Shown here: piece after piece, positions 8,504 through 25,366 of the stretch | Layout of the letters: each line of letters opens with the position of its first letter | Position numbering within the stretch: the stretch's first letter is position 1 | NCBI GenBank assembly: GCA_030427205.1 | Contig: JAUHXC010000011.1 | Coordinates: 172,016 to 236,015, forward strand | DNA: 64,000 bases | DNA from: a bacterium | GTDB lineage: Bacteria; Myxococcota_A; Bradymonadia; UBA7976; UBA1532 | Direction of reading: 5' to 3' | Program-made: the position numbers and the translations under genes | Notes under the pieces: generated by a model | Database searches by the model: none | Seen by the model: only the letters and a program-made list of their open reading frames with translations | What the model was told of the DNA's origin: nothing

Positions 8504-8623
8504 CGTGATTCGGGCGAGGCATGGTGTGTCTCGGGCGTGTCATTGCGCCAGGGCAGGGTGGGGGGTATCCTGCGCCCCTTCCCGCCGGGCGCGGGGCTCG
8601 ACGAATGTGAGGAACAGCCGGGG

Positions 8624-9460
8624 ATGAGCAAAACGAACCGCAAGGAAGTGCGCAAGAACGTGCCCCGGCTCGAGACCGCCGTGCCCGACTTCCGGCTGGT
8701 GGCCCACGGCGCCACCGACGTCGGCCGTCGGCGCGAGGTCAACGAAGACTCCTTCCTCATCCTGCCGCGCAATCACGTCTGGATCGTCGCCGACGGCATG
8801 GGCGGGCACGCGGGCGGTCAGGTGGCGAGCACGCTGACCATCGGCACGGTGGGCGACGCGCTCGTGCGCCGGCTCGCCGACGCCGAGGAGTCCGCCGAAG
8901 CGCCGCTCAACGTCGCCGCGCTCGTCGAGTCGTCGGTGCTCGAGGCGTGCCATACCGTCTTCGACACCGCCCGCGAGAACCCCGAGCTGACCGGTATGGG
9001 CAGCACGGTCACCGCGATGATGGTGCACGGCGCCGAGGCCTGGTTCGGCCACGTGGGCGACAGCCGGGCCTATCTGGTGCGCGAGGGCAAGATCCATCAG
9101 GTCACCGAAGACCACTCGCTGGTGCAGGAGCACGTGGCCGCGGGGCTCATCACCCCCGAGCAGGCGCGGGTCTCGGTCATCCGCAACATCATCACCCGCA
9201 GCATCGGCTTCGAGCGCGACGTCAAGGTCGACATCGGCGCGGTGCCGCTCGAGCGGGGCGACGTCTTCCTCCTGTGCTCCGACGGGCTGACCGGCCACGT
9301 CGAAGACCACGAGATCCTCGAGATCATCGAAGGCAACAAGCGCGGGGCGGTGCCCAAGATCCTCATCGACCTGGCCAACAGCCGGGGCGGCGAAGACAAC
9401 TGCACGGTGATCCTCGTCGCGGTCACCGGCCGCCGGGGCCGCAGCCGCAAGGCCAGCTGA
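8624..9460 (+). CDS. PP2C-family Ser/Thr protein phosphatase
   Basis: ATG 8624 after GAGGAA RBS; motifs ATDVGRRREVNEDS, ADGMGGHAGG, GDSRAYL, LCSDGL, GGEDNCTVIL typical of PPM/PP2C. Confidence 0.85.
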   Translation: MSKTNRKEVRKNVPRLETAVPDFRLVAHGATDVGRRREVNEDSFLILPRNHVWIVADGMGGHAGGQVASTLTIGTVGDALVRRLADAEESAEAPLNVAALVESSVLEACHTVFDTARENPELTGMGSTVTAMMVHGAEAWFGHVGDSRAYLVREGKIHQVTEDHSLVQEHVAAGLITPEQARVSVIRNIITRSIGFERDVKVDIGAVPLERGDVFLLCSDGLTGHVEDHEILEIIEGNKRGAVPKILIDLANSRGGEDNCTVILVAVTGRRGRSRKAS

Positions 9461-9472
9461 CCGCGCCCCGCG

Positions 9473-11008
9473 GTGAAGACCCCCGATCCCCGACCCACCC
9501 TCTCGGTCTGCCTCATCGTGCGCGACGAGGCCGCCATGCTCGGCCCGTGCCTCGAGAGCGTGAGCGCGCTCGCCGATCAGATCGTCGTCGTCGATACCGG
9601 CAGCGTCGACGCCACCGTCGACATCGCCCGGGCGCACGGGGCCGAGGTGCATCACTTCAGCTGGTGCGACGACTTCGCCGCCGCCCGCAACGCCAGCCTC
9701 TCCCATGCCCGCGGCGACTTCGTGCTGGTGCTCGACGCCGACGAGCGGCTGGCCCCCGACGCCGCCGACCGCATCCGGGCGGTGATGGCCGCCGAGCCGG
9801 CCGGGGCGCCGCCGACGGTGCACCTGCCGCTGATCGACAACCGCGACGCCGCCGGACAGGCCCTGGGCGCCGACTTCATGCCCCGCCTGTGGCGCAACCG
9901 CCCCGAGCTGCGCTTCACCGGGCGGGTCCACGAGCAGATCGGGGTCGGCGTCGGCGGCTTGCGGCAGGCGTTCGACGACCGCATCCGCATCATGCACCTG
10001 GGCTACGACCCGGATTACGCCGCCGAGCGCGGCAAACGGGCCCGCAACCGCGCGCTGCTCGAAGCCGAGCGGCGCGAACGCCCCGGCGACCCGACCATCG
10101 CCTTCTATCTGGCCAAGGAGGACTACGCCGAGGGCCGCGACGCCGAGGCTCTGGCCGGGTTTCGCCGGGCGATCGACGGCGCGGGGGCCAACCTGTCGCT
10201 GTCGGCGACGCTCTTCGCGGTCGAGTGCCTGCGCAACCTCGGCCGCCACGCCGACGGGGTGGCCCTGGCCCGCGCCGGCCTCGACCGGGCGCCGAGCTAT
10301 GGCGACCTGTGGTTCGTCGCCGGGCGGACGGCCCTCGAAGGCGGCGACCCGGAGACCGCGCTGACGCTGCTCGCCGAGGCCGGCCGCGCGCCCACGGGGC
10401 TGGCGGCCATCGCGTTTCGCGACCTGTCCGTCGGCGAGTGGCGCGCCGCGCTGACCACCGCCCGGGCCCACGCCGCCCGCGCCGGGCAACTCGACGGCGC
10501 GCGCCAGCCCGAAAGCGCCATCCAAGACCGCCGCGCGGCCGCCGCGATCTACTCCCGACTGCGTCGCCGACTGCCCGACGCCGAGCGCCTCGTCGCCGAT
10601 CTGGAGGCCGCCGAGCTGGCGGTGGCCCTGCGCGACCCCGAAGGCGCGTGGCGCCTGCTCGCGCCGACGCTCGACGCCGCGCCGGTCGACGGCGGCGAGA
10701 TCCTGCTCGGGCTGGTGCAGCTGGTCATCGAGCTCGCCGGCCTGCAGCCGGCCTACGGGCTGCTGGTCGACGCGCTCTCGGCCCACCCCGCGCTGCTGCA
10801 TCGGCTGCCGCTGGTGGGCGCCGCCGCCGAGCTGGCCGAGGCGCTGGGCGACGGCGCGCTGACCCAGTGGCTGCACATCTGCACTCTGCTCGACAGCCCG
10901 CATCCGGTGCACTACCGCGCCCTGGCCGACCTGCGCGACGCCGCCGGCGAGGCCGAAGAGGCCGCCCGGCTGCGGTCCCGCGCCGCGTCCCTCGACGACG
11001 CGCCGTAG
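9473..11008 (+). CDS. family-2 glycosyltransferase with C-terminal TPR-like region
   Basis: GTG start 13 bp after phosphatase stop; LSVCLIVRDEAAMLGPCLESV...VVVDTGSVD...VLVLDADERL (GT2 DxD fold) followed by helical repeat region. Confidence 0.7.
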   Translation: MKTPDPRPTLSVCLIVRDEAAMLGPCLESVSALADQIVVVDTGSVDATVDIARAHGAEVHHFSWCDDFAAARNASLSHARGDFVLVLDADERLAPDAADRIRAVMAAEPAGAPPTVHLPLIDNRDAAGQALGADFMPRLWRNRPELRFTGRVHEQIGVGVGGLRQAFDDRIRIMHLGYDPDYAAERGKRARNRALLEAERRERPGDPTIAFYLAKEDYAEGRDAEALAGFRRAIDGAGANLSLSATLFAVECLRNLGRHADGVALARAGLDRAPSYGDLWFVAGRTALEGGDPETALTLLAEAGRAPTGLAAIAFRDLSVGEWRAALTTARAHAARAGQLDGARQPESAIQDRRAAAAIYSRLRRRLPDAERLVADLEAAELAVALRDPEGAWRLLAPTLDAAPVDGGEILLGLVQLVIELAGLQPAYGLLVDALSAHPALLHRLPLVGAAAELAEALGDGALTQWLHICTLLDSPHPVHYRALADLRDAAGEAEEAARLRSRAASLDDAP

Positions 11009-11014
11009 CGGCGG

Positions 11015-11689
11015 CTACTCGGCGAGCTTGTAGCCCACCCCGCGCACCGTCTCGATGGTCTCCGCCGACAGCCCGGCGGCCACCAGCTTCTTGCGCAGCG
11101 TCTTGATGTGCACGTCGACCGTGCGCTCGGTCACCGCCACGTCCGGCCCCCAGGCCCGGTCGAGCAGCTGCCCGCGCTCGAAGACGCGGCCCGGCGCGCC
11201 GACGAAGACCGCCAGCAGGTCGAACTCGGTGCGCGACAGGCCCAGCTCGGTGCCTTCGGCCCACGCTTGGCGCTTCTCCGGATCGACCCGCAGCCGGGGC
11301 ACGCCGGTGGGCCCCGCCGGGCTCACCCGGCGCAAGACCGCGCGCACGCGGGCCACCATCTCCCGCGGTGAGAACGGCTTGTCCACGTAGTCGTCGGCCC
11401 CCAGCTCGAGCCCGACGATGTGCTCCACCGGGTCGTCGTGGCTCGACAGGATGATCACCGGGATGCGGTCGCCGTCGGCCCGGGCGCGCAGCCAGTCGAG
11501 GCCGTTGCCGTCGGGCAGCATCAGGTCGAGGATGACCAGCGCCGGCGGCGCCTGGGTCAGCGCGGCGTCGGCCTCGGCCAGGGTGCGGGCGGTGCGGGTC
11601 TCGAAGCCGGCGCGCCCGAGGGCATAGGCCAGGCTCTCGGTGATGGCCGGCTCGTCGTCGACGAGCAGGATCGTCTGGGGGGCGGGCAT
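11015..11689 (-). CDS. OmpR-family response regulator (receiver + winged-helix DNA-binding)
   Basis: ILLVDDEPAI...LVILDLMLPDGNGLD...RTVDVHIKTLRKKL...GVGYKL. Confidence 0.85.
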   Translation of the reverse strand: MPAPQTILLVDDEPAITESLAYALGRAGFETRTARTLAEADAALTQAPPALVILDLMLPDGNGLDWLRARADGDRIPVIILSSHDDPVEHIVGLELGADDYVDKPFSPREMVARVRAVLRRVSPAGPTGVPRLRVDPEKRQAWAEGTELGLSRTEFDLLAVFVGAPGRVFERGQLLDRAWGPDVAVTERTVDVHIKTLRKKLVAAGLSAETIETVRGVGYKLAE

Positions 11690-11725
11690 CGCGACTCCCG
11701 ACGCTCGGCGCGGTCGCCGGCCAGG

Positions 11726-12388
11726 TCAGCCGGCCGGGCTCGGCTCGGGGCCGGTCTCCATGTTCGCGCGCACGTTGCGGATGATGGTGCGGATCCTGTG
11801 CTGCCAGTTGTAGACCACCTGGGTGGTGACCTGCATCACCTCCGCGACATCGGCCGGCTTTCGCCCGTCGACGTAGATGTAGGTGAAGATGAGCTTGCCC
11901 CGCTCGGGCAGGGTGTCGATCAGCGCCGCCTTCAGCCGCCCGGCGAGCTCGCGGCTCATCGCCTGCGCCTCCGGGTCGGCGCCGCCGGAGAGCCCGTGCA
12001 GGTCGTCGAGGTTGGTCATGGTGACGTTGCCTCCGCTCTTCTGGGTCTCGGTCTTGATGCGCTCGCCGCGGGTCTTCGAGCGGGCGACGACGGTCACGTA
12101 GGCCTCCAGGTTGCCCCGCGTCGGGTCGAACTTGCGCAGCACCGCCGCGTCCTTGTCGAGGATGTGGGTCCAGACCTCCTGCACCAGATCGTCGCCGTCG
12201 TGCGCCCCGAGCGTGAAGCGGCCGCGCTTGCGCAGGGCGTAGCGCACGGTGCGCCGGATGATCGGCATCAGCCACTCGACGAGGTCGCGCATCGCCCGCC
12301 GGTCACCGCCGAGCGCCTTCTTCAAGAGATCAACGCCCGCGTCGACGGCCACCGACATGGCCACCGTCAGCAACCAGAAGCCATTCAT
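11726..12388 (-). CDS. ECF (sigma-70 family) RNA polymerase sigma factor
   Basis: Region 2 (DLVQEVWTHILDK) and region 4 HTH (IFTYIYVDGRKPADVAEVMQVTTQVVYNWQHRIR); start overlaps upstream anti-sigma stop (ATGA). Confidence 0.7.
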   Translation of the reverse strand: MNGFWLLTVAMSVAVDAGVDLLKKALGGDRRAMRDLVEWLMPIIRRTVRYALRKRGRFTLGAHDGDDLVQEVWTHILDKDAAVLRKFDPTRGNLEAYVTVVARSKTRGERIKTETQKSGGNVTMTNLDDLHGLSGGADPEAQAMSRELAGRLKAALIDTLPERGKLIFTYIYVDGRKPADVAEVMQVTTQVVYNWQHRIRTIIRNVRANMETGPEPSPAG

Positions 12389-13179
12389 TCGGACCCCTCC
12401 TTCCGGTCGACGTAGTCGAACTCGACCGCGTGCCAGCGTACGCCGCCCTCGTCTTCAGAGGTGGGTAGGGATTCGCCGGCGAGCCCTTGCAACTGCGCCT
12501 CGTCGAAGGCGAAGGCGACGTGCAGGCTGCGCTGACCGAGCCGGTCTCCGAGGATCCGGGTGATCGGCGCTTCGAGGGTCCACGCGCCGCCGGCACCGAA
12601 CTGCCCTTGCGCCTTCGAGAGTTCGAGCTTGCCGCCCTCATCGACGAAGGCCCGGGCGGTGATGGCCGCGTCTGCTTTGGCGTCGAGGTCCTCGCCGGGC
12701 TTGAGGATCACCGTCACCGTCGCCTCGTTGTCGACGCGATACGGTCCTCCGACGGACGGCCCGCGGAGCGGCGACTCGTCCCCGCGGACCAGCTTTTGGG
12801 CGCCGACGACGTCGAAGACCGCGTAGCCCGGCGGCGGATCGACCGTGGGCCGCATCACGAAGAAGGCCACCGCCGCCGCCAGGCTCAGCAGGGTCACCGT
12901 CGGGGCGATCCACCGCTTCGGGGGCCGCACCGCGCGGGTGCCGTGCTTGACCGCCCAGGCCTGTACGAACGCGCTCGGCGCGTCCTCGAACTCGTCGATG
13001 AAGGCCCGCGCCGCCGGATCGGCCGCCAGCATGACTTCGGCGCGGGCGGTCTCCACCTCGTCGAGCTCACCGGCGCGCCAGGCCATCAGGAGCGCCAGAT
13101 CGGCCTCCTCCTCGGGGGGGTCGAGCAGCGGCCCCAGGCCGCTGGCGAGGGCGTCGATGTCGTCGTCGCTGAGGGTCAT
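12385..13179 (-). CDS. putative transmembrane anti-sigma factor
   Basis: Cytoplasmic N-term (Glu/Asp-rich), single TM (WIAPTVTLLSLAAAVAFFVM), periplasmic C-term; 4-bp overlaps with CHAT gene upstream and sigma gene downstream. Confidence 0.5.
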   Translation of the reverse strand: MTLSDDDIDALASGLGPLLDPPEEEADLALLMAWRAGELDEVETARAEVMLAADPAARAFIDEFEDAPSAFVQAWAVKHGTRAVRPPKRWIAPTVTLLSLAAAVAFFVMRPTVDPPPGYAVFDVVGAQKLVRGDESPLRGPSVGGPYRVDNEATVTVILKPGEDLDAKADAAITARAFVDEGGKLELSKAQGQFGAGGAWTLEAPITRILGDRLGQRSLHVAFAFDEAQLQGLAGESLPTSEDEGGVRWHAVEFDYVDRKEGSE

Positions 13180-15995
13180 TGCGCTTCCTCACAGTGTCGC
13201 AGGGATCGTTCGGGTGGAATCGGGATGTGCGGCCGGCCGACGAGGCGCCAGTTGTTCCAGCTCTCGTTGCCTGCGTCGAGCAAGGCGCGGGTCGCCGCAC
13301 GCAGCGCCGGTCCCGGCCGATGGTCGCCGCCGTGCACGTAGAAGGCCTCGCTGAACAGCTTCGCGTGCTCGTCCCGCACTGGCCGATCGGTGGCGACGAC
13401 CGCGCCGCTGCCCGCCACGAGCAGCGCCTCGGGCAGTCCGAGCACGTCGTCGCGGGTCGACAGCGCGTCGGCGCCGGTCTGACAGCCGTTGAGCACGACC
13501 AGCCCGGCGACGGCCTGTTCGAGCCCGAGGATGTCGAAGACGTCAAAAGGCTTCTTGCCGGCCATGACCAGATGCGTCGACCAGGGGTGATCGGGGATCG
13601 ACTCGCCATGCCCCGAGAAGTGCACCAGCCGCGATGCCTTCAAGCTGCCTTCGAGCTTCGGGCCGGTCGCCGCCTCCCGGGCGAAGAGGCGCGAGCCGGG
13701 CAGGGTCCGCGCGAGCCACTCCCCCTCGGCGTAGGCATTGCCCAGCTCACTGGTCGGGTCGGCCAGGATCGTCGGTGGTCCGCACGGGATCTTGCGTTCG
13801 GCGACGAGCAGCTCGCCCGCCGGCAGCAGGGAGACCGAATACGGCCGATAGTTCGCCGCGCGGAAGGCGACCGCCACGACGTCCGGGTGGCCGCCCGCGA
13901 CCACATACAGATGCGCGGTGCTCCACGGCGGCGTGGGCAGGGTGTCGTCGTCGACGAATTCGGGCAGCGGGGTGGTCTCGTAGGCCGTCGCGCTGGCCCA
14001 CAGCGCGACCCGGCCGCCATCGCGCCGGGCCACCACCATGATGGTCTGCCCCGGCTCCAGCGCCGCCTGGACCTGCGCCGGGTCGACCCCGGTCAGCGGC
14101 AGCTCGGCGTCGAGGAAGTCGGCGACCGCCTTCACCGCAGCCCGCTGACGCGCCTCCGCCCTCTTCAGCTCGCGCTCCGATGCGCGCTGAGCCGCGCCCG
14201 CCGTGCGGCGAATCCGCTGCTTCAGGGCGCGGATCTCGTCGGCGATTTCGGCGATCCGCCCGCGCAGCCCACGCAAGACGTCGCGCTTGTCGGCGTCGAG
14301 GCTGTCGGCGAGTCGAGCGGCGAGCATCGTGCGCAGGACGCGGCCCTGGTTGCGGTCGGCCAGGGTGAACGCTCGCCGCAGGCTCCTCTGGTCGCCCCGC
14401 TCGATGGCCAGCGTCAACGAGGCGCGCAGCAGCTCGGCCCGGTCGTCGAGGAATCCGATCCGCTGCTCGAGCGGGTCCGTCAGCGCAGCCAGCCGCTTCA
14501 GCCGCGTCCGGGCTCGGGCGAAGTGCGTCTCGGCGGTCTGCAGATCACCGGCGGCGCGGGCCGCCTGTCCCAGCCCCAGCGCTGCCCGCCAGCCGTAGTC
14601 CCCGCCGTGAACTCCCCAGTGCGCCACCGCCGCCGCCTCGGCGGCCTCGAAGGGCGCCCGTGCCTCCGCCCAGCGCCCCTGAGCCAGCTCGAGCCGCCCC
14701 GTCAGCAGCGACGCGAACCCGCGGATCTCGTCGGCGGCGCTGCTCGCGAAGGGCGCGATCAACGCCGCCGCGGTCGACCAGTGTCCGTCGAGAAGCTCGA
14801 CGAGGGCCAGATTGAGCTGTACGTGGGCCCACGCGCTCGACCGGGTATCGGCCAGGAGGGCCGCCGCCTGCTCGAAGAGCCGACGGACCCGGCCGAAGTC
14901 ACGGGGGATCGCGCCGCGCTCCATGGCTTGCAGCAGGACGAAGCCGGCGTTGCTCGCGAAGCTCGCCCGGGTCTCGGGATCCAGCGTCGGGATGTCGACC
15001 AGCGGCTCGATCAGCTCGACCGCCGCCCGATGGTTGCCGAGGGACTGCGCCAGCGCCGCTCGGATCTGGCCCGTATTGGCCGCCAGCTCGTCCACGGCCG
15101 GACCGGCGCGCTTGATGAGGTCGGTCACGGCGACGGCCGCCGCGTGCGCTTCGCGCCAGCGCGCGGTGAGGTAGTACAGCTGCAGGGAGACATCGGTCAG
15201 GCGCAGGCGGGCCTCGGCGTCGAGCTCGGCGGCGATCGACCGCGCCTCGTCGAGGTACGCCGCGGCGGTGGTGAAGTCCGAGCGGACCAGCGCCCAGAAC
15301 GCCGCGGCGCACAACCGGCTCACCCGCTCCGACGGCACGCGCTGGCGCGCCGCCAGCTCGGCCGCGCGGACGTAGGCCGCCTCGCTGACCCGGCGGTGAT
15401 CTTCATCCGGGCCGCAGAGGCTCTTCGCCTTGTTCGCCGCCAGGAGGGTCGCCCACAACGCCACCTCGTCTTCGCTCTGTCGATCGACGATGGTCGCGAT
15501 CTCGGTCTCGCTCGCGCAGCGCGCGGCCTCGTCTTCGGGGTCGCCCTCGACCTCCGCGGCCAGCGTCACGATCCGGGCCACCGCCGGCAGCTGCTTGGGT
15601 GGCCTGCGCCATTCGGCCGGCCAGCGGGCCACGGTGAAGCCCGCCTGGCGCAGCTGCAGCTCGCCGGGGCTGAGGGGCGGATCGTTCTCGACGACGAGGA
15701 AGTTCATCTCACCCCTCGCCTCGGTCCGATGATCCAGCGGGAAGATACGGCCGTCGGCGTCCACCCAGCGCAGCGCCAGCCCGAGCGGGCTCGGCACCCG
15801 AACGATCGGCCGCTGCTCGTCGTCGAACCAGCGGACCGGCCGGCCGTCGCGCAGGGCGATCGCCCGCCGGCCGTGCAGCTCGACGTCGGGCATCGGTCGC
15901 TGCGCCGCGGCCGATGCGCTCGGCTCTTCGGCAGCGGAGACGCCGCCCAGGACGATGGCGACCAGCCAGAGAGCATGCAGTGGGGCACAACGCAT
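13176..15995 (-). CDS. secreted TPR-repeat protein with C-terminal CHAT (caspase-like) protease domain
   Basis: Signal peptide MRCAPLHALWLVAIVLGGVSAAEE; long helical TPR-like region; C-terminal VHFSGHG ... LVVLNGCQTG His/Cys dyad arrangement of CHAT domains. Confidence 0.65.
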   Translation of the reverse strand: MRCAPLHALWLVAIVLGGVSAAEEPSASAAAQRPMPDVELHGRRAIALRDGRPVRWFDDEQRPIVRVPSPLGLALRWVDADGRIFPLDHRTEARGEMNFLVVENDPPLSPGELQLRQAGFTVARWPAEWRRPPKQLPAVARIVTLAAEVEGDPEDEAARCASETEIATIVDRQSEDEVALWATLLAANKAKSLCGPDEDHRRVSEAAYVRAAELAARQRVPSERVSRLCAAAFWALVRSDFTTAAAYLDEARSIAAELDAEARLRLTDVSLQLYYLTARWREAHAAAVAVTDLIKRAGPAVDELAANTGQIRAALAQSLGNHRAAVELIEPLVDIPTLDPETRASFASNAGFVLLQAMERGAIPRDFGRVRRLFEQAAALLADTRSSAWAHVQLNLALVELLDGHWSTAAALIAPFASSAADEIRGFASLLTGRLELAQGRWAEARAPFEAAEAAAVAHWGVHGGDYGWRAALGLGQAARAAGDLQTAETHFARARTRLKRLAALTDPLEQRIGFLDDRAELLRASLTLAIERGDQRSLRRAFTLADRNQGRVLRTMLAARLADSLDADKRDVLRGLRGRIAEIADEIRALKQRIRRTAGAAQRASERELKRAEARQRAAVKAVADFLDAELPLTGVDPAQVQAALEPGQTIMVVARRDGGRVALWASATAYETTPLPEFVDDDTLPTPPWSTAHLYVVAGGHPDVVAVAFRAANYRPYSVSLLPAGELLVAERKIPCGPPTILADPTSELGNAYAEGEWLARTLPGSRLFAREAATGPKLEGSLKASRLVHFSGHGESIPDHPWSTHLVMAGKKPFDVFDILGLEQAVAGLVVLNGCQTGADALSTRDDVLGLPEALLVAGSGAVVATDRPVRDEHAKLFSEAFYVHGGDHRPGPALRAATRALLDAGNESWNNWRLVGRPHIPIPPERSLRHCEEAQ

Positions 15996-16084
15996 CGTCT
16001 GGTGCTACGTGAGCCGACGCGACGTGTCCAGGGATCGGGGTGTTTCATGGGTCTATCAACCACTTACGGCCGGCTCGATACCGC

Positions 16085-17233
16085 TCAGAACCACGGCGAC
16101 GCGGCGGCCGCCGCCGAGCCCACCGCGAGGCTCGCGGCCACGGCGGACGCGCTCAGGAGCCAGCGGGACCGCCGGCGGCTGCGCTCGCCCGGCGCGCGAC
16201 TGCGCCGGACCGAGCCGGTGCCGTCGCCGCCGTCCCGGGCCCGCTCGGCCTCGTGCTCGGCGAAGCGCGCCAGCAGCTCGGCGCTCGGCGGGTCGATGAG
16301 CGTATCGTCCTCGCCGCCGAAGAGCCCGGTCAGCTCGGCGAGCGCGGCGCTCATCGCCCGCGGGTCGGCGAACCGCGAGCTGGGGGACTTGGCCATCGCC
16401 CGGGTGATGACCGCGCTCAGCTCGCCGGTGGGGTCGACCTCCAGCGGCAGCCGCGGCACCGGATCGACCGCGTGGCCGAGCAATACGGTCTCGAGCGTGC
16501 CGCGGAAGGGCGCGTGGCCGGCGAGCATCTCGAAGAGCACGACGCCGAGCGAGTACTGGTCGGCCGCCGGGCCCACCGGCAGCTCGGCCAGCGGCTCGGG
16601 GGCCATGTACAGCGGGCTGCCGAGCATCCAGCCGGCCTGGGTCAGGTCTTCGTCGTCGTCGTCGAAGCCGTCCTCGCGCCGGGCGAGGCCGAAGTCGATG
16701 AGGGTCACCTGCTCGTGCCCGAAGCCATCCCGCCGCAGCAGGATGTGGGCCGGCTTGATGTCCCGGTGCACCACGCCGTGGCGGTGGGCGACGGCGAGGG
16801 CGTCGAGCACCTGCCGGGCGATGTCGAGCGCCCGCGCCGGCGCCAGGGCGCCCTCGGTGTCGATCACCCGCTCCAGCGAGGTGCCCTCGACGAGCTCTTC
16901 GACGATGTACAGCCCGCCCGACTCGGGGCCCTCGTCACGCAGGGTGCCATAGCGCAGGAGCCCGACGATCGACGGGTGGTCGAGCAGCTCGAGGGCCCGC
17001 ACCTCGCGCAGGAAGCGCATGCGGTGCTGCATGTCGTGGGCGTTGGGGCCGGTCAGCAGCTTGACCGCCACCGACCGGCCCGATGGCCGTTGCTCTGCGC
17101 GGTAGACGGTGCCTTGCACCCCGGCCCCGAGGCGCTCGACCAGGTCGAACTCACCGGCGATGGTCCGGCCGATCCAGGGATCGACGGTCTCGGCGGCGTT
17201 CGGGGCGGCGACGGCGGGGTCGGAGTGGCGCAT
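16085..17233 (-). CDS. Hanks-type Ser/Thr protein kinase with C-terminal TM segment
   Basis: Internal start MRHSDPAV (cat 17231..17233); GAGVQGTVY, AVK, HRDIKPAHILL, DFGLAR, APE motifs; C-term RWLLSASAVAASLAVGSAAAA; track ORF extended upstream through non-proteinlike sequence. Confidence 0.85.
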   Translation of the reverse strand: MRHSDPAVAAPNAAETVDPWIGRTIAGEFDLVERLGAGVQGTVYRAEQRPSGRSVAVKLLTGPNAHDMQHRMRFLREVRALELLDHPSIVGLLRYGTLRDEGPESGGLYIVEELVEGTSLERVIDTEGALAPARALDIARQVLDALAVAHRHGVVHRDIKPAHILLRRDGFGHEQVTLIDFGLARREDGFDDDDEDLTQAGWMLGSPLYMAPEPLAELPVGPAADQYSLGVVLFEMLAGHAPFRGTLETVLLGHAVDPVPRLPLEVDPTGELSAVITRAMAKSPSSRFADPRAMSAALAELTGLFGGEDDTLIDPPSAELLARFAEHEAERARDGGDGTGSVRRSRAPGERSRRRSRWLLSASAVAASLAVGSAAAAASPWF

Positions 17234-17410
17234 GATGACCTCGGGGGCGGAGGGTTCGTCGAGATCTAGGGCGGGCGACGGATTTTCTTTCGTTGGCGGG
17301 CCATGATTTTTCGATCGAGATATCGGGGGCCTTTCCGATCGGCCCCGGCGGTTGTCGCCGGGCGACGCCGATGCCAAGATGCGGCCACGACAACCCACGG
17401 GAGCCCTCTG

Positions 17411-17899
17411 ATGCGTATCGTCCTGCTGTCCCTCACGATGCTCGCCCTCGCCGTCGCCTGCGGTCCCAACCCCGAGCCCAAGCCCGACGCGCCGGCGGAG
17501 GCCACGAGCAGTGACCCCCGGCCGATCATCATCACCTGCGGCTCGTGCCGGGTGGAGGTCTGCTACGACACCGCCAACCCCGAGCGGCTCGGCAACGTCA
17601 AGCTCGACCTGCGGCCGACCGCCGACGGCGAGCCGCTCGTCGGCGACTGGCAGGCGGCGCTGCTCGAGCTCGAGCCCCCGTCGGGCGGCGCGCAGGGCCT
17701 CGCGCTCAAGACCGACGCCTGGAAGGACAGCGGCCCGATCCTGGCCTCGGTGAAGGACCCCAAGCTGCAGCCGGTCTCCGGCGGCTGGGCCAAGGCCAAG
17801 GCCACGCTGACCCTCACCTGGAAGGACGGCAAGCAGGTCCGCTCGCACAAGTTCACCGCCAAGGACGGCCTGCGGGTCAACGTCATGTCCTGCAAGTAG
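17411..17899 (+). CDS. hypothetical lipoprotein
   Basis: MRIVLLSLTMLALAVACG lipobox; ATG 17411. Confidence 0.45.
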   Translation: MRIVLLSLTMLALAVACGPNPEPKPDAPAEATSSDPRPIIITCGSCRVEVCYDTANPERLGNVKLDLRPTADGEPLVGDWQAALLELEPPSGGAQGLALKTDAWKDSGPILASVKDPKLQPVSGGWAKAKATLTLTWKDGKQVRSHKFTAKDGLRVNVMSCK

Positions 17900-18072
17900 G
17901 AGTCTGTAGTGCATAGCCCGACACATCGCCCAGCACGGTCCCGTTCACCGATTTCGGTGTCGTCAGGCGCTCGACATACGTCGAGTATCTCTGCGGCCCT
18001 CCTCCTTGAACTCGGCGAACGGCCCCGCACCGGGCTCGGTCGTCTACGCCCTACAGCCTCCTAGTCCGGCCC

Positions 18073-19560
18073 GTGTCGCACCACCCTCAATCGGCGGCGG
18101 TGGTGGTCGGCGTCGACCACTACCCCGACCCGGCCATCGCCGATCTGCGCGGCGCGGTGGCCGACGGCCGGGCCATGGCCCGGCTGCTCGTCGAACACTT
18201 CGGCTTCGCGCCCGATCGCGTCGTGACCCTCTTCGACGAACGGGCGACCGCCGCCCGCATCGAAGGGGCCGTCGACTGGCTGGCGCGCACCGTCGGCCCG
18301 GAGGGCGCGGCGGTCTTCTTCTTCGCCGGGCACGGGGCGCAGCGCTTCGACGACTCGGGGGACGAGTCCGACGACTTCGACGAGACCTTCGTGCCCCACG
18401 ACAGCGGCCGCGGCGCGCGGCCCGATCGCGACCTGACCGACGACTGGATGCGCGTCCGGCTCGAGCGGCTCGCCAAGCGGGCGGCGAGCGTCACCGCCAT
18501 ATTCGACTGCTGTCACTCGGGCACCATGGGCCGGGCGGAGGGCTACACCGGCGTGCGTGGGGCCGCGCCGGTCAAGGGCCCGCGGCGCGCCCGCGGACCG
18601 GCCCTGCGCCGCGCCGGCGGCGACCTGCCCTATGTGCTGCTCGCGGCGGCCGCCGCCGACGAGGCGGCCCACGAGAAGACCGTCGGCGAGAAGCCGCAGG
18701 GGGTCTTCACCCGGGCGCTGGTCGGCGCGCTGGCGGCGAGCACGGCCCGGGACTCGTGGCGCACCCTCATCGCCCGGGTCGCCGACGACGTCGGCCGGGC
18801 GCAGGCCGAGGGGCAGCGGCAGACCCCGCAGCTCGAAGGCGCCCATCGCGATCGACGGCCGTTCTCCACCGCGCAGCCCGAGGCGCGCTGGGCGCCGGCC
18901 GAGGCCGACGGTGGGGGCATCGCGGTGGCCCTCGGCGCGCTGCACGGCGTCGCGATGGATACGGTGCTGACCATCGAGCCCATCGGGGGGCAGACAGGCC
19001 CGCTGAACGCCCGGGTGGTCGATCTGGGGCCGTTCTCGTGCCGCTGCGTACCGCTGGACGGGCGAGCGGTCGACGGGCCGCTGCGGGCCTTCCCGCCGCC
19101 CCAGCGGCCGTCTCTCTGGGATCTGACCGCCGATCCGACCTATGCCGCCGACCCGTTCGACCTCGTCTTCGACGCCAGCGGGCTCGTCGACGACGACGGG
19201 GCGCAGGTGGTGCACGCGGGCGACGCGCTGACGCTGACCTTCGACAATACCGGCAACCGGCGGGTGCACGTCGCGCTGGCGGCGATCGACGTCGACGGCC
19301 GGGTGCGGGTGCTGGCGCCCGAGCCGGGCGGCGAGATGCAGATCGCGCCCTTCGGCCGCCACGCCGAGATCATCGAAGCCGAGCTGCCCCGCGAGCGCCC
19401 GGGCGGCATGCGCTGGCGGCTGGTGCTCGTCGTCAGCAGCGCGCGCTTCGACGCCGGCCTGCTCGAGACCGCGGCGCGTACGATCATCCCCCCGATAAAG
19501 AATCTGCTGCTGGCGCTCTATCCCATGGTGGTGCGGGTGCTGCCCCCGCCCGAGCGCTGA
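18073..19560 (+). CDS. caspase-family (peptidase C14) protein with C-terminal beta-rich domain
   Basis: Caspase His/Cys dyad FFFAGHGAQ ... AIFDCCHSGT; GTG start as in ORF track (no good SD, start uncertain). Confidence 0.7.
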   Translation: MSHHPQSAAVVVGVDHYPDPAIADLRGAVADGRAMARLLVEHFGFAPDRVVTLFDERATAARIEGAVDWLARTVGPEGAAVFFFAGHGAQRFDDSGDESDDFDETFVPHDSGRGARPDRDLTDDWMRVRLERLAKRAASVTAIFDCCHSGTMGRAEGYTGVRGAAPVKGPRRARGPALRRAGGDLPYVLLAAAAADEAAHEKTVGEKPQGVFTRALVGALAASTARDSWRTLIARVADDVGRAQAEGQRQTPQLEGAHRDRRPFSTAQPEARWAPAEADGGGIAVALGALHGVAMDTVLTIEPIGGQTGPLNARVVDLGPFSCRCVPLDGRAVDGPLRAFPPPQRPSLWDLTADPTYAADPFDLVFDASGLVDDDGAQVVHAGDALTLTFDNTGNRRVHVALAAIDVDGRVRVLAPEPGGEMQIAPFGRHAEIIEAELPRERPGGMRWRLVLVVSSARFDAGLLETAARTIIPPIKNLLLALYPMVVRVLPPPER

Positions 19561-19575
19561 GCCACCGGAGACGTC

Positions 19576-21960
19576 ATGCCCGAAGAGAGACAGCGCGCCG
19601 AGGCCGGCGCGAAGCCCGATGAGTCCCGCGCCGGCTGGCGGGCCCTCATTGTCGGCATCGACCGCTTCGCCCGGGTCGGCGGTCTGCAGGGCGCCGCCCA
19701 GGACGCCGCGCAGGCCGAGGCGTTCGCCCGCGAGGGCCTGCGCATCCCGCCCGAGAACATCACCGTGCTCACCAACGAGGCGGCCACCCGCGAGGCGGTG
19801 ATCGCGGCCCTGCGCGCGCTCGGCGACGCCGAGCTGACCGCCGACGATCAGGTGTTCGTGCACATCTCCAGCCACGGCACCCGCATGCTCGACCCGCTCG
19901 ACCAGAGCCCCAGCGGCTTCATCGAGTGCCTGGTGGTCTACGACAGCGGCCCGGGCGGCGCGTGGCACATCCCCGACCTGACCATGGGCGCGCTTTTCGA
20001 CCGCGTCACCCGCAAGACCGAGCGGCTGACGGTGGTGATCGACACCTGCCACTCGGGCTCGGCCACCCGCAGCAACGTGCGGCTGACGAACACCGACAAG
20101 CGCTCGCCGCCGGCCGACCTCGACGCACACATCCGCGCCGAGGGCTCCGGCGTCCTCGACGGCACCATGCGCTATGTGGTGCTCGCCGCCTGCCAGGACC
20201 GGGAGCTGGCCTTCGAACACCACGAGCGGGTCGGCGACCAGACGATCGTCTCGGGGCTCTTCTCACGCTTCCTCTATCCCGCGCTGCGCGCGGCGCGCAG
20301 CGACACCTCGTACCGCATGCTGATGGAGCGGGTGGCGGTGCAGGTCAGCGGCCGGCAGAGCCAGCACCCGCTCTGCGAGGGCCGCGCCGATCGGGCGATC
20401 TTCGGCGGGGCCGACGTGCGGGTCGACCGCTTCTTGACGGTGGTCGGCGAGCGCATCGGCAGCGTCGCCATCGACGGCGGCACGCTGCACGGGCTGCGGC
20501 CGGGCGACCGCGTGGCGTTCTACGGGCCCGAGCTGCGCACGCTGGACCAGCTGAAGGCCGGCGCCGACGACGTACCGGTCGAGCCGCTGGCCATCGGTAC
20601 GCTCACCGCGGTGGACAGCACCCGCAGCAGCGCGCGTATCGAGCCGCCGCCCGAAGGCCGGCCGGCGCCCGAGAGCCTGATGTTCGCCCGCGTATTGCGC
20701 GAAGGGCCGCTGACCGATGGCGGCACCGTGCGCTTCGAGGTCGAGCCCGGGGCCCGGCCGCTCGGCAAGCCGCCGCACTACATCCAGTGGCGGCTGGCCG
20801 AGCCGGGCGAGGTGCCCGACACCGTGGTGAAGGTGGGGCACACGCAGATCGAGCTGCTCGACGCCGCCGGCCACCAGCGGGTCTCGCCGCAGCCCCGCTC
20901 GGGCGAGATCTGGGACAGCATCTCGATCATCGCCCGGGTCGATCGGCTCAAGCGCCTGCGCAACCCCGACCGCGGCTCGCTGCTGCAGGACGGCTTCGAG
21001 ATTCGGGTGCGGCGGCTGGTCGACGATCACGACGCCCGCAAGAGCCCGGTGATCGAGCCGACGCGGGGGCGCGTCGTGCTGCCCTACGATCCTGGCGCGC
21101 CGACGACCTGGTACATGACCGAGCTGATCAACCGCACGACCCGCACCGCGCGGCCGCATCTGCTGCTGCTCAACGCCGACTACAGCGTCGTGCCGCTGCT
21201 CTCGCAAGCCTCGGGCGCGCGCGCGGTGGACGACGGACGGGCTGTCTTCGTCGGCCATCGAGACCAGTCCCAGCGCTTCGCCGCGTTTCTGCCCGGCGAC
21301 GTACCCGGCGACGCATGGTGGGTCCGGGCCGACAATACCTTGCTGCTGCTGGCGAGCCGGCGACCGATCAACGTCGACCTGCTCCGCCAGGGCGGGATCC
21401 GCAGCCAGCCGCCCCAGGGCCGCACCCCCGAGCGCGACAGCCTGACGAACCTGCTCGCCGACTGCGCCGCCGGCCGACGCATGCTGCGTCGACGAGCGCC
21501 GGAGGACTGGGGCGCCCAGCACTTTCAGATCACGGTGCTGCGCCGCCCCGCCGAGGTGCGTCCGGTCGGCGCGGGCGCGCTGCCCATCGGCCTCGGCTTC
21601 GACGCCGCCGGCATCGAGGGCACCCTCTGCGCCGCCGAGTTCGACCGGATGGCGCTCTTCACCCCGCTCGACCGCCCGCCGCTGGAGTCCTTGTCCGTCG
21701 CCGGCCTCGAGCCGGTGCTCTCACCCGCCCGCGGGTCGGGCACCTCGCCGCTGGTGGTGCGCGTCGTCGGCAAGGCGGCCCCCGGGGCGAAGCTGACCCT
21801 GAAGGTGCCCACCGAAGATCAGCCGCTGGTGCCGGTGGCCTTCGATCGCGCGGGCCATACCGTCGTCGGTCGACCGGGCGGGCCCGGCGAGGCCGTCTTC
21901 GACCTGCCTACGGCCTTCGACCGCCCGTTCCTGCTGGCCCGCCCCCGCTCGAGCTCATGA
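19576..21960 (+). CDS. caspase-family (peptidase C14) protein, large, paralog of upstream gene
   Basis: VFVHISSHGTRM ... VVIDTCHSGSA dyad; post-caspase segment GSVAIDGGTLHGLRPGDRVAF parallels GIAVALGALHGVAMDTVLTI of the upstream protein. Confidence 0.7.
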   Translation: MPEERQRAEAGAKPDESRAGWRALIVGIDRFARVGGLQGAAQDAAQAEAFAREGLRIPPENITVLTNEAATREAVIAALRALGDAELTADDQVFVHISSHGTRMLDPLDQSPSGFIECLVVYDSGPGGAWHIPDLTMGALFDRVTRKTERLTVVIDTCHSGSATRSNVRLTNTDKRSPPADLDAHIRAEGSGVLDGTMRYVVLAACQDRELAFEHHERVGDQTIVSGLFSRFLYPALRAARSDTSYRMLMERVAVQVSGRQSQHPLCEGRADRAIFGGADVRVDRFLTVVGERIGSVAIDGGTLHGLRPGDRVAFYGPELRTLDQLKAGADDVPVEPLAIGTLTAVDSTRSSARIEPPPEGRPAPESLMFARVLREGPLTDGGTVRFEVEPGARPLGKPPHYIQWRLAEPGEVPDTVVKVGHTQIELLDAAGHQRVSPQPRSGEIWDSISIIARVDRLKRLRNPDRGSLLQDGFEIRVRRLVDDHDARKSPVIEPTRGRVVLPYDPGAPTTWYMTELINRTTRTARPHLLLLNADYSVVPLLSQASGARAVDDGRAVFVGHRDQSQRFAAFLPGDVPGDAWWVRADNTLLLLASRRPINVDLLRQGGIRSQPPQGRTPERDSLTNLLADCAAGRRMLRRRAPEDWGAQHFQITVLRRPAEVRPVGAGALPIGLGFDAAGIEGTLCAAEFDRMALFTPLDRPPLESLSVAGLEPVLSPARGSGTSPLVVRVVGKAAPGAKLTLKVPTEDQPLVPVAFDRAGHTVVGRPGGPGEAVFDLPTAFDRPFLLARPRSSS

Positions 21961-22892
21961 CCGCGCGCCCGATCCACCTCGCCCTGCTCGCGCTGGCCGC
22001 CGCGTGCAGCGATCCGCCGCCCGCGGCCCCACCGGCCGCCGAGACGCCGCCCGCCGAAGCGGCCCCCGCGGCCCCGACCGGCCCGACCGTCGCCGAGCGG
22101 CGGGCCCGATTCGAAGCCCGCCCGACGGTCGACCTGCCCGACGACCTGCCGCCCGCGTGGCGCGGCTACGCCAAGGCGCTCGACGGCCGGCTGGTCGAGG
22201 CGCGGCACGCGGTGCGCAGCCACCCCGGCCGCGCCGGCTATCGCGCGGTCTCGCTGACGATCCGGGTCTTCGGCCTCGACGACGCCGTCCGGGCGCGGGT
22301 GCACGGCGCGCTGGCCGGGCTCGATCTGCCCGAGCTGCCGCCGCTGGCCGACGCCGGCGAAGACTTCTGGCGCGGCGAGGTGATCGTCGATGGGCCGGTG
22401 CGCTGGCGGATCGACATCGGCCGGCTGGTGGCCCCGCCCGGCGAGCCCCGAGAGCAGATCGTGGCCCTGGAGTGGACCCGCGAGCCGCCGCCGGCCGCGC
22501 CGGACGTGCGCGACTGCCGCAAGCCCCCCGCGGTGCCGGCGCCGGCGAGCGCGCCGGCGTGGCTCAGTCGCACGACGAGCAAACGCACCACCCGCCGCCG
22601 GGTCACCGCCGAGATCCGGCGCACCGCGAAGGCGAAGGCGATCGAAGAGCGCATCGAGCTGCGCATGCTCTTCCGCAACAGCTACGCCCACGACGAGCAC
22701 CTGCGCCATCTGGCCGAGGCGGCGGCCAAGGCCGGCTTCACCCGGGAGGGTGACGCGGGCACCCGCCAGCGCTGGGCGCACCCCGACGGCAGCCGGTTCA
22801 CCTTCGCGCCGGAGACCGCGGGTGATCTGAAGCTGGGGTGCACTCTGGCGGGGCCGGCCTTGCGGCTGACGCTCACCCGCTCGGGCGGCTGA
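21957..22892 (+). CDS. hypothetical lipoprotein translationally coupled to caspase gene
   Basis: ATGA overlap 21957..21960; MTARPIHLALLALAAACSDPPP (lipobox); 3' part of artefactual ORF 19926..22892. Confidence 0.5.
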   Translation: MTARPIHLALLALAAACSDPPPAAPPAAETPPAEAAPAAPTGPTVAERRARFEARPTVDLPDDLPPAWRGYAKALDGRLVEARHAVRSHPGRAGYRAVSLTIRVFGLDDAVRARVHGALAGLDLPELPPLADAGEDFWRGEVIVDGPVRWRIDIGRLVAPPGEPREQIVALEWTREPPPAAPDVRDCRKPPAVPAPASAPAWLSRTTSKRTTRRRVTAEIRRTAKAKAIEERIELRMLFRNSYAHDEHLRHLAEAAAKAGFTREGDAGTRQRWAHPDGSRFTFAPETAGDLKLGCTLAGPALRLTLTRSGG

Positions 22893-22953
22893 GCGTCGGG
22901 CGGGCGGCGGGCGGCGGGCGGTGAGAGGCAGGAGGCGGGCGCTCGACCGCCCG

Positions 22954-23430
22954 TCAGAGGGCCTTGATGCTGGTCAGGATCTTGGTGATGGCGGCGTCGT
23001 GCTTCTTGCCGGCGCCCTTCTCGCTGAAGCCGATGAGGACCAGCGCCTTGCCGTTGGGCGGCACCACGATCGCCAGCCCGACCTCGATCGCCTGGCCCTC
23101 CATGGTGCCGGTGCCCTCGGCTGCGAAGACCGGCATGCCGTTGGCCTTGCCCTCCTGGGGCTCGCCGCCCTGGAAGTTCTTGATGCCCATCTCGTCGAGC
23201 ATGCCGTCGAGCTCGTCCATCATCGCCTCGAGCGCCGGCTGATCGACGCCGAGGAAGATCGCGAAGACGGTCTCGTCGGGCGAGATGGTGCTGACCATCG
23301 GGCCCTGCATCTCGGTCTTCCACGCGTCGGGCAGGTGGTACTGCACCCCGGCCTCGGGGTGCTCGATCTCCTTGGCGAAGGCGGGACCGGCGACGAACAG
23401 GGCGGCGAGGCACAGCATGAGGGTACGCAT
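22954..23430 (-). CDS. hypothetical secreted protein
   Basis: Internal start MRTLMLCLAALFVAGPAFA (signal peptide), cat 23428..23430. Confidence 0.45.
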   Translation of the reverse strand: MRTLMLCLAALFVAGPAFAKEIEHPEAGVQYHLPDAWKTEMQGPMVSTISPDETVFAIFLGVDQPALEAMMDELDGMLDEMGIKNFQGGEPQEGKANGMPVFAAEGTGTMEGQAIEVGLAIVVPPNGKALVLIGFSEKGAGKKHDAAITKILTSIKAL

Positions 23431-23584
23431 CGGATGACTCCTTTGTCGTTGTGTGATGCGGGGTTGTGATGATTTCTGCTGGGAGGCGCGCAGGCTCGGC
23501 CCCCAGTCCGCAATCAGAATCGAAAAAAGTGTCAAGCGGGCTTTACAGCCGCCGTCGGCGCGCGGGCGACACCCGACGCATCGG

Positions 23585-23613
23585 TTGACTCCACGGTGCT
23601 GCGGCCCTACACT
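23585..23613 (+). promoter_or_regulatory. sigma-70-like promoter upstream of ffh (TTGACT-N17-TACACT)
   Basis: ttgact 23585..23590, 17-nt spacer, tacact 23608..23613; about 57 nt upstream of ffh ATG. Confidence 0.4.
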
Positions 23614-23669
23614 CCCATGCCCCTCGTCCGGCCCCTTCCGGCCGGGCGCCACTCCAGCCGGGACGTCCG

Positions 23670-25366
<1,697 letters not shown>

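Follow-up and report, generated by a model that had tools for sequence, protein, structure and literature searches.

Whether two groups of bacterial genes that face away from each other are governed from the short stretch between them, and by which of the regulators they encode, is the question raised by a locus in a 64-kb segment of a bacterial contig (assembly GCA_030427205.1, JAUHXC010000011.1, positions 172,016 to 236,015; hereafter the window). To the left run the genes of a Ser/Thr kinase, a CHAT protein, a membrane anti-sigma-like protein, a sigma factor of the extracytoplasmic function (ECF) class and an OmpR-type response regulator (RR); to the right run those of a small lipoprotein, two caspases and a second lipoprotein. 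The original prediction described the space between them as a 178-bp divergent region from which both sides are co-regulated. Direct reading of the start codons bears out the divergence and corrects the length: the kinase start codon (CAT, with the ATG beginning at 17233 on the minus strand) occupies 17231-17233, the lipoprotein ATG occupies 17411-17413, and the gap, 17234-17410, comprises 177 bp. The same 177 nt are obtained by independent gene calls on L001, a Logan contig of the same organism. This gap is reasonably likely to be a real, conserved two-way promoter region made of two back-to-back promoters. Its elements are as follows:

17234-17410, no strand: divergent intergenic region, defined by the start codons, the Logan gene calls and the four-way alignment A10
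17239-17243, minus strand: ribosome-binding site CGAGG of the kinase gene, invariant in four lineages
17263-17268, minus strand: kinase-side -10-like box TAGATC, CTAGG core invariant
17286-17291, minus strand: kinase-side -35-like box GAAAGA (TCTTTC on the plus strand), invariant in four lineages
17307-17311, no strand: T5 tract (A5 in two relatives), always CG-(A5 or T5)-CG in the centre of the gap
17352-17357, plus strand: candidate lipoprotein-side -35 box TTGTCG, TTG invariant in four lineages
17372-17381, plus strand: candidate lipoprotein-side extended -10, TGcCAAGAT(G), TGCCAAGATG invariant in four lineages
17399-17403, plus strand: ribosome-binding site GGGAG of the lipoprotein gene, read from the sequence and kept in the relative L003

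The alignment compares the gap of the window with those of L003/L004, L049 and L055, together the four lineages in which the divergent layout was found. On the lipoprotein side, a spacer of exactly 17 nt follows the -35 hexamer in all four, its sequence variable, and the A at 17387, 7 nt past CAAGAT, is invariant and is the predicted start site. In appearance the element is a promoter of the housekeeping type, its -10 extended (TGnCAAGAT) and its -35 of the form TTGnnn. On the kinase side, the minus strand reads GAAAGA, a 17-nt spacer of variable sequence and CCTAG(A/T)(T/C)C, beyond which lies a conserved GAAC; its A, 7 nt downstream (17255-17256), would be the kinase start site. Invariant across the alignment are TTG, TGCCAAGATG, A17387, TCTTTC, CTAGG, TTC and the ribosome-binding site. 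In 658 kb scanned on both strands, the two bipartite motifs (the kinase-side one as GAAAGA-N17-TAG[AT][TC]C) are confined to these four loci. The centre between the two -35 boxes keeps a length of 57-60 nt in the four lineages and is otherwise free in sequence; its A5/T5 tract is the only one in the contigs of L003, L055 and L049, and the background of such tracts in the window is 0.16 per kb.

Part of the lipoprotein-side element reaches further. An AAGATG-N3/4-CCA core, with a background of 0.02 per kb per strand, also precedes the gene of the lipoprotein orthologue in L006 and in L008/L043/L044, which have no kinase gene, and there GAC-containing, -35-like hexamers lie 15-16 nt upstream of the core. 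A shared AT-rich 6-mer arose in only 0.6% of shuffles. The ATG of the core opens a reading frame of 10, 61 and 55 codons in the window (17379-17411), L006 (5546-5731) and L008 (5453-5620), respectively, and in all three its TGA overlaps the lipoprotein start codon. An upstream coding frame was rejected in view of a 1-nt indel in L003, ATA in place of ATG in L043 and 1-2-nt indels among L008, L043 and L044.

It is conservation, fixed spacing and the conserved A at +7 that lead us to read the elements of the gap as promoters. Several points weigh on the other side. By strict sigma-70 consensus the elements are weak: CAAGAT agrees with TATAAT at 3/6 positions and TTGTCG with TTGACA at 4/6, GAAAGA is not sigma-70-like, and scans for sigma-70 promoters and terminators report nothing in 16800-18400 (the only consensus promoter that the sigma-70 scan finds in 10800-23700 is upstream of ffh). 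Both the start sites and the identity of the promoters are predictions, and the conserved blocks could be binding sites of a regulator instead of -35 and -10 boxes. In L006 and L008 the AAGATG core is 165-185 nt upstream of the lipoprotein start and would thus imply long leaders. Finally, the four lineages are related, so that shared ancestry contributes to the conservation, although the near-saturation of silent sites speaks against its explaining all of it. An Rfam scan of 16500-18600 at E <= 1 returned no RNA family, and the 177-bp gap folds no better than its shuffles (z = -0.35).

The gene map of the locus was drawn from third-codon-position G+C (the window has a G+C content of ~72%), lists of open reading frames, Pfam and NCBIfam, and the two databases confirmed all the gene identities given in the original prediction:

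11015-11689, minus strand: OmpR-type RR (Response_reg and Trans_reg_C)
11726-12388, minus strand: ECF sigma factor, 220 aa (Sigma70_r2 and Sigma70_r4_2; TIGR02937 at 58 bits, cut-off 42.9)
12385-13179, minus strand: single-pass membrane anti-sigma-like protein, 264 aa (transmembrane segment; family alignment A6)
13176-15995, minus strand: CHAT protein (CHAT, E = 7.7e-25)
16085-17233, minus strand: Ser/Thr kinase (Pkinase, E = 9.5e-45)
17411-17899, plus strand: small lipoprotein, 162 aa (lipobox LAVAC; alignments A7 and A9)
18073-19560, plus strand: caspase 1 (Peptidase_C14, E = 1.3e-24; N-terminus read from the sequence)
19576-21960, plus strand: caspase 2 (Peptidase_C14, E = 6.1e-14)
21957-22892, plus strand: second lipoprotein, 311 aa (frame analysis and list of open reading frames; the Logan gene call also has 311 aa)

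On the minus strand, 89 nt separate kinase and CHAT genes, CHAT and anti-sigma genes overlap by 4 nt, as do anti-sigma and sigma genes, and 36 nt separate sigma and RR genes. On the plus strand the spacings are 173 nt between lipoprotein and caspase 1 and 15 nt between the caspases, followed by a 4-nt overlap of caspase 2 with the second lipoprotein. The open reading frame 22004-22753 of the mechanical list was discarded as lying in the wrong frame of the latter gene.

That the two sides belong together is supported by the distribution of their components among relatives. A word-indexed search of 5.8 billion proteins gave 7 relatives of the lipoprotein and 6 of the CHAT protein, and a full HMMER pass over 1.84 billion representatives gave 70 relatives of the anti-sigma protein. 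Genome contigs were scanned with the CHAT alignment and metagenome contigs with the sigma alignment; the components were mapped by tblastn and checked by Pfam. ECF sigma, anti-sigma, TPR-CHAT protein and a second protease occur together in ~20 independent loci, and the best-matching loci are mostly metagenome-assembled genomes labelled Myxococcales or Bradymonadia. The second protease is a caspase, accompanied by a small CxxCx4C lipoprotein, in the window, L003, L006, L007 and L008, and an S8 subtilase in L005, L009, L022-L024, L027, L030, L031 and L033. In L010 (5168-8511) the N-terminal domain of the anti-sigma protein and an S8 subtilase form one polypeptide. The order of the genes varies: L006 and L008 have lipoprotein, caspase, anti-sigma, sigma and CHAT tightly spaced on one strand, and in L007 the lipoprotein and caspase genes diverge directly from CHAT across 56 nt. 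The layout of the window, one or two caspase genes and a lipoprotein gene diverging from kinase-CHAT-antisigma-sigma-RR, recurs in L003/L004, L049 and L055. The closest relative is Logan SRR14597287 (L003, L004), with 66-91% protein identity. For L049 and L055, found through the search with the anti-sigma protein, identity is 33-67% in most proteins and 0.5-0.65 at 4-fold-degenerate sites, near saturation; the gene calls and motif positions of L050 and L051 are as in L049.

This co-occurrence, which is stronger evidence than divergence alone, argues that the caspase operon and the CHAT/sigma genes are parts of one system. Of the proposed co-regulation, then, the functional link between the two sides stands, through the ~20 loci and the layout shared by four lineages; the part assigned to the sigma factor or RR stays conjectural. 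The kinase is present in only part of the family. An RR gene comes next after the sigma gene in L045, L046/47, L049, L052-54 and L055, and the RR itself has 89-94% amino acid identity to those of L049 and L055, far above the other components of the locus; its gene gives the impression of being under strong constraint, with a module that evolves fast joined to it.

The picture of two diverging operons, as originally proposed, holds for the kinase gene and the lipoprotein unit. The CHAT, anti-sigma, sigma and RR genes have a conserved promoter-like element of their own in the 89-bp kinase-CHAT gap:

16002-16031, minus strand: promoter-like element of CHAT-antisigma-sigma-RR, CTGGACA-N15-CGTAGCAC followed by 6 nt and the ATG, found in four lineages with variable spacer sequence

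With a promoter of their own for these genes, the kinase gene is, in the strict sense, the sole leftward gene to diverge from the 177-bp gap, and CHAT-antisigma-sigma-RR appears to be at least partly an independent unit. The element can be read in two ways, as TGGACA-N17-TAGCAC or as GGAC-N16-CGTA, the latter resembling ECF-type promoters. In the first reading TAGCAC lies at -12 to -7 of the CHAT ATG; a -10 box at this position predicts a leaderless mRNA, which fits the missing ribosome-binding site, and the CHAT mRNA is therefore probably leaderless. The kinase-CHAT gap folds worse than shuffled sequence (z = +1.8) and, being less structured than the shuffles, is not a terminator or structured RNA. 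The only intergenic match of the AAC/CGT type on a gene's own strand, TGAAAC-N17-CGTC (16044->16022), was discarded as the sigma factor's own promoter because L004 has an altered -10 and neither L049 nor L055 has the motif at all. AGACG, a 5-mer of the same gap, occurs upstream of 8/10 S8-type operons (0.3% of shuffles), at -100 to -121 in L005, L023, L024, L026 and L033; it could not be built into a promoter. The automatic gene call in L055 missed the true CHAT start, which, with a signal peptide (MRLPSSAAVLL...), lies 284 nt further upstream and in another frame than the called gene (5917-6201); the contig has either a frameshift or an error of assembly here.

Which regulator would then act on the gap? 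ECF-type sites of the form AAC-N16/17-CGT, which the original prediction had proposed to look for, were found on neither strand of 17234-17410 or of 17900-18072. GTAA-N16-CGT, the DdvS type, was likewise absent from both strands of these two stretches and from every upstream region examined, and an exhaustive search for bipartite motifs in the upstream regions of 14 lineages gave a best motif in 9/14, the level of shuffles. Sequence thus lends no support to control of the gap by the encoded sigma factor or RR, which at present can only be conjectured. It is compatible with the action of the sigma factor, of the RR or of a factor that binds the A/T tract, for example CarD-CarG, and does not decide among the three.

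The first possibility, in which the encoded ECF sigma factor, once freed from its anti-sigma factor, transcribes one or both divergent promoters and has the caspase operon as its regulon, is rather unlikely. ECF sigma factors usually serve the genes next to them and the operon that encodes them, and they have no region that reads the TG of an extended -10. DdvS exemplifies the action on neighbouring genes (PMC6061681). In L008, the region of the AAGATG core is the only sizeable non-coding stretch upstream of the co-directional cluster, so that any autoregulation would pass through it. GAAAGA, in a kinase promoter that is not sigma-70-like, is A-rich like the -35 boxes of ECF promoters, and the CHAT promoter has its ECF-like reading, GGAC-N16-CGTA. 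Yet neither AAC-N16/17-CGT nor GTAA-N16-CGT occurs in the gap, the three conserved promoters have no -35/-10 pair in common, the lipoprotein-side element relies on the TG that ECF sigma factors do not read, and the search across 14 lineages did not rise above shuffles. Moreover, the caspase or S8 gene is itself a fixed component of the module and not a variable downstream target.

Binding of the OmpR-family RR to the centre of the gap, and co-ordination of both promoters from there, is distinctly improbable. In its favour, every relative of the sub-lineage (L045, L046, L049, L052-55) has the RR gene after the sigma gene, its product is as strongly conserved as described above, and the centre of the gap keeps its length; direct repeats rich in T, at a spacing of 22-25 nt, occur in the window (D3, D7), and the gap has two CGATCG palindromes, where ~0.15 are expected. 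However, these palindromes and the direct repeats D3, D6 and D7, which were considered as control sites, are conserved in neither position nor orientation across the four lineages. The RR is absent from the distant L006 and L008, which keep the lipoprotein-side core; there is no cognate histidine kinase near the RR gene and no known binding motif for this RR. Both regulatory models add to the two-way promoter and do not compete with it, and the likelihoods assigned here are not meant to sum to one. That the two sides are mere neighbours, their conserved blocks reflecting only recent common ancestry, is very improbable: divergent gene pairs are common in bacteria, and the 72% identity of the gap to that of the closest relative is about that of silent sites (0.61-0.81), but layout and motifs persist in L049 and L055 despite near-saturated silent sites, the components meet in ~20 loci in several orders, including co-directional clusters and the anti-sigma::S8 fusion, and the motifs are unique to these loci in the 658 kb.

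The two-way promoter accordingly remains our preferred reading of the gap, and the following course of events is proposed. The rightward promoter (TTGTCG, 17-nt spacer, TGcCAAGAT, start at A17387), of housekeeping-sigma architecture, would transcribe lipoprotein-caspase-caspase-lipoprotein. The leftward promoter (GAAAGA, 17291->17286; 17-nt spacer; TAGATC, 17268->17263; start near 17256) would transcribe the kinase gene. Its poor -35 box, together with the conserved A/T tract ~50 bp upstream of the predicted kinase start (the two -35 boxes are ~60 bp apart), suggests that it needs a helper, which could be an UP-element-like contact, an AT-hook protein or an activator. CarD-CarG binds AT-rich sites at ECF promoters in Myxococcus xanthus (PMC6061681). 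A third promoter (16031->16002) would mainly read CHAT-antisigma-sigma-RR, and all three would serve one envelope signalling module: in analogy to DdvA/DdvS (PMC11506125) and to the regulated proteolysis of anti-sigma factors, the exported TPR-CHAT protein, possibly aided by the second protease, would cut the membrane anti-sigma factor in its periplasmic part and free the ECF sigma factor, and the kinase and RR would add further inputs in this lineage. The analysis shows the identities of the genes and the conservation of their co-occurrence, layout and motifs; from it we infer the proteolytic cascade, the start sites and the sigma factor that reads each promoter.

The features of the individual proteins bear on this proposal. 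The CHAT protein has 939 aa, an N-terminal signal-like segment and an invariant His796/Cys838 pair (alignment A4). Its structural model (predicted local distance difference test, pLDDT, 50; predicted template modelling score, pTM, 0.32) has ~500 residues of helical repeats (130-630) followed by an alpha/beta domain; it was used for secondary structure only, its quality being too poor for a fold search. The protein is predicted to be an exported TPR-CHAT protease. The anti-sigma-like protein has one transmembrane helix (residues 90-110), and its N-terminal segment, LLMAWRAGELDEVETARAEVMLAADPAARAF, aligns with the family, of which the member L026 keeps the canonical HxxxCxxC (alignment A6). The window protein has M, D and A at the positions of the zinc ligands and thus lacks the HxxxCxxC that marks the zinc-binding anti-sigma (ZAS) subclass. 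Pfam finds zf-HC2 in 2/12 family members, and the three top PDB matches of the family profile, marginal at E = 0.06-0.09, are the anti-sigma factors ChrR and RslA. We read the 264-aa protein as a class I anti-sigma factor that has lost its zinc ligands. The L010 fusion of anti-sigma domain and S8 subtilase mirrors the anti-sigma::TPR-CHAT fusion of DdvA and suggests that the second protease acts at the anti-sigma factor.

The sigma factor, with Sigma70_r2, Sigma70_r4_2 and TIGR02937, is an ECF (sigma-70 group 4) member. Its family shows a hydrophobic N-terminal extension of ~20 residues before sigma-2 (window 12323-12379, sigma residues 4-22; also L008, L009, L010, L049 and L055) and, at the C-terminus, the unusual motif QVVYNWQHKIR. 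The N-terminal extension could be a membrane tether or a cleavable pro-sequence. The kinase has a C-terminal membrane anchor, with residues 359-377 as its hydrophobic segment. Two genes (8537-11008), one for a PP2C Ser/Thr phosphatase and one for a GT2 glycosyltransferase-TPR protein, converge on the RR gene; as the same GT2/PP2C pair follows the RR in L046, the phosphatase may be the partner of the kinase.

Both window caspases retain the catalytic His and Cys motifs of Peptidase_C14 (AGHG and DCCHSG in one, SSHG and DTCHSG in the other) and neither has a signal peptide. The caspases of the window, L003, L049 and L055 have no leader and are predicted to be cytoplasmic; those of the kinase-less L006 (6216-), L007 (-9081) and L008 (~6076-) begin with a signal or lipoprotein leader, from which export is predicted. 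To judge from these leaders, the compartment of the effector appears to have switched within the family. The small lipoprotein has an invariant CxxCx4C...C pattern, and its model (pLDDT 63, a beta-sandwich) had no Foldseek match in PDB at E <= 0.001. PADLOC made no assignment to a defence system: only its generic kinase (PD-T4-6) and generic caspase models matched, and there was no match for the CHAT, anti-sigma, sigma or lipoprotein components.

The closest known system is DdvS/DdvA of M. xanthus, in which an ECF sigma factor is held by a single-pass membrane anti-sigma factor and signalling involves a periplasmic TPR-CHAT caspase-like module; the DdvS operon further encodes a second clan-CD peptidase (C25) and a protein whose function is unknown, and the sigma factor controls neighbouring genes (PMC6061681, PMC11506125). 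The two systems share the ECF sigma factor, the membrane anti-sigma factor, putative here, the periplasmic TPR-CHAT protein, predicted here and with the His-Cys dyad (H796/C838), the extra clan-CD peptidase and a myxobacterial or myxobacteria-like source. They differ in that DdvA unites anti-sigma domain, transmembrane segment and TPR-CHAT in one polypeptide, whereas here two genes encode 264 aa and 939 aa, the latter with its own signal peptide; the anti-sigma domain here has no zinc ligands, the GTAA-N16-CGT promoter pattern of DdvS is absent, caspases and lipoproteins take the place of the CBASS (cyclic oligonucleotide-based antiphage signalling system) and CRISPR (clustered regularly interspaced short palindromic repeats) genes next to DdvS, and a kinase and an RR are added. 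Assuming that DdvA-DdvS entries are in the PDB copy used, a phmmer search of the CHAT protein against all PDB chains gave 0 matches at E <= 0.01; on the same assumption, the sigma profile matched other ECF and FliA sigma factors best and no DdvS chain.

The Craspase set of type III-E CRISPR comprises the TPR-CHAT protein Csx29, Csx30 and the ECF sigma factor RpoE (PMC10028731). There, too, a TPR-CHAT protease is tied genetically to an ECF sigma factor and to an anti-sigma-like protein that is the substrate of the protease; Craspase, however, is cytoplasmic and RNA-guided (Cas7-11), whereas here CRISPR genes are absent, and prediction places the CHAT protein and the ectodomain of the anti-sigma factor in the periplasm. 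Regulated intramembrane proteolysis of the sigmaE-RseA-DegS-RseP type likewise combines a membrane anti-sigma factor that extends into the periplasm with a protease in that compartment, which likely supplies the site-1 activity. It uses a DegS/Prc-type serine protease; in the present locus CHAT and a caspase or S8 subtilase would take this part, and cleavage is predicted. A Ser/Thr kinase encoded beside an ECF sigma factor, as in the window, L049, L055 and L039, recalls ECF43. Such kinase-associated groups generally have no anti-sigma factor and are thought to be activated by phosphorylation of the sigma factor (PMC7826278), unlike the present family, which has a full anti-sigma factor and only in part the kinase. 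With other back-to-back divergent promoters the gap shares the outward-facing pair, the fixed spacing and central room for shared regulator sites, but in place of the one-component regulator that sits beside its own operator in classical divergent loci, the regulators are encoded downstream in a separate unit. As a divergent promoter region the gap is of an ordinary kind, but its conservation is unusually clear, which makes it a good experimental handle.

Literature searches found no description of this gene set. Put together, the locus may belong to a rare, undescribed "split DdvA" family, a reading we advance tentatively: the exported TPR-CHAT protease and the second protease, either an S8 subtilase or a caspase paired with the small Cys-rich lipoprotein, would cleave a separate anti-sigma factor in trans and release a dedicated ECF sigma factor, and in one sub-lineage the caspases would have lost their export signals and come to sit behind a two-way promoter at which kinase, RR and sigma factor jointly gate the making of cytoplasmic caspases. 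If so, the locus would be a transcriptionally gated switch for cell death or defence. The DdvA work left untested whether the periplasmic CHAT protease makes the first cut that frees the ECF sigma factor; with protease and anti-sigma factor as separate proteins, this cut would become testable in trans with purified parts. To our knowledge, very little is known about the silencing and activation of caspase genes in bacteria, and three placed elements for mutation, TGcCAAGAT, GAAAGA/TAGATC and the A/T tract, offer a route to this question.

The 173 bp between the lipoprotein and caspase 1 genes, finally, have a separate origin:

17900-18063, no strand: MITE-like (miniature inverted-repeat transposable element) hairpin insertion of ~164 nt, recognized by its inverted repeats, its fold and the empty site in relatives

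Its terminal inverted repeats (17897-17916 and 18044-18063) are 85% complementary, TAG stands at both ends, and 17900-18072 folds into a long imperfect hairpin of -79.7 kcal/mol (z = -4.4). The same junction measures 12 nt in L003, 7 nt in L055 and 5 nt in L049. From the hairpin with its inverted repeats and TAG ends and the empty site in these three relatives, it was concluded that the insertion is lineage-specific and MITE-like; it has the marks of a MITE, being short, non-coding, bounded by inverted repeats and TAG and missing from relatives. There was no second copy in the 64-kb window or in the other loci examined. Short-read Logan contigs of the same organism break inside the element, as expected for a repeat. 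The palindrome 17970-17985, once put forward as a possible control site, is the tip of this hairpin; lying in an insertion that L003, L055 and L049 do not have, it cannot be a conserved operator. The insertion may alter the coupling or the stability of the operon mRNA. In L009 (15175-15470), the S8 and anti-sigma genes are separated by an insert of ~230 nt with inverted (GGGCAC)n runs on its flanks, so that small insertions with inverted repeats are seen in a second locus of this module family.

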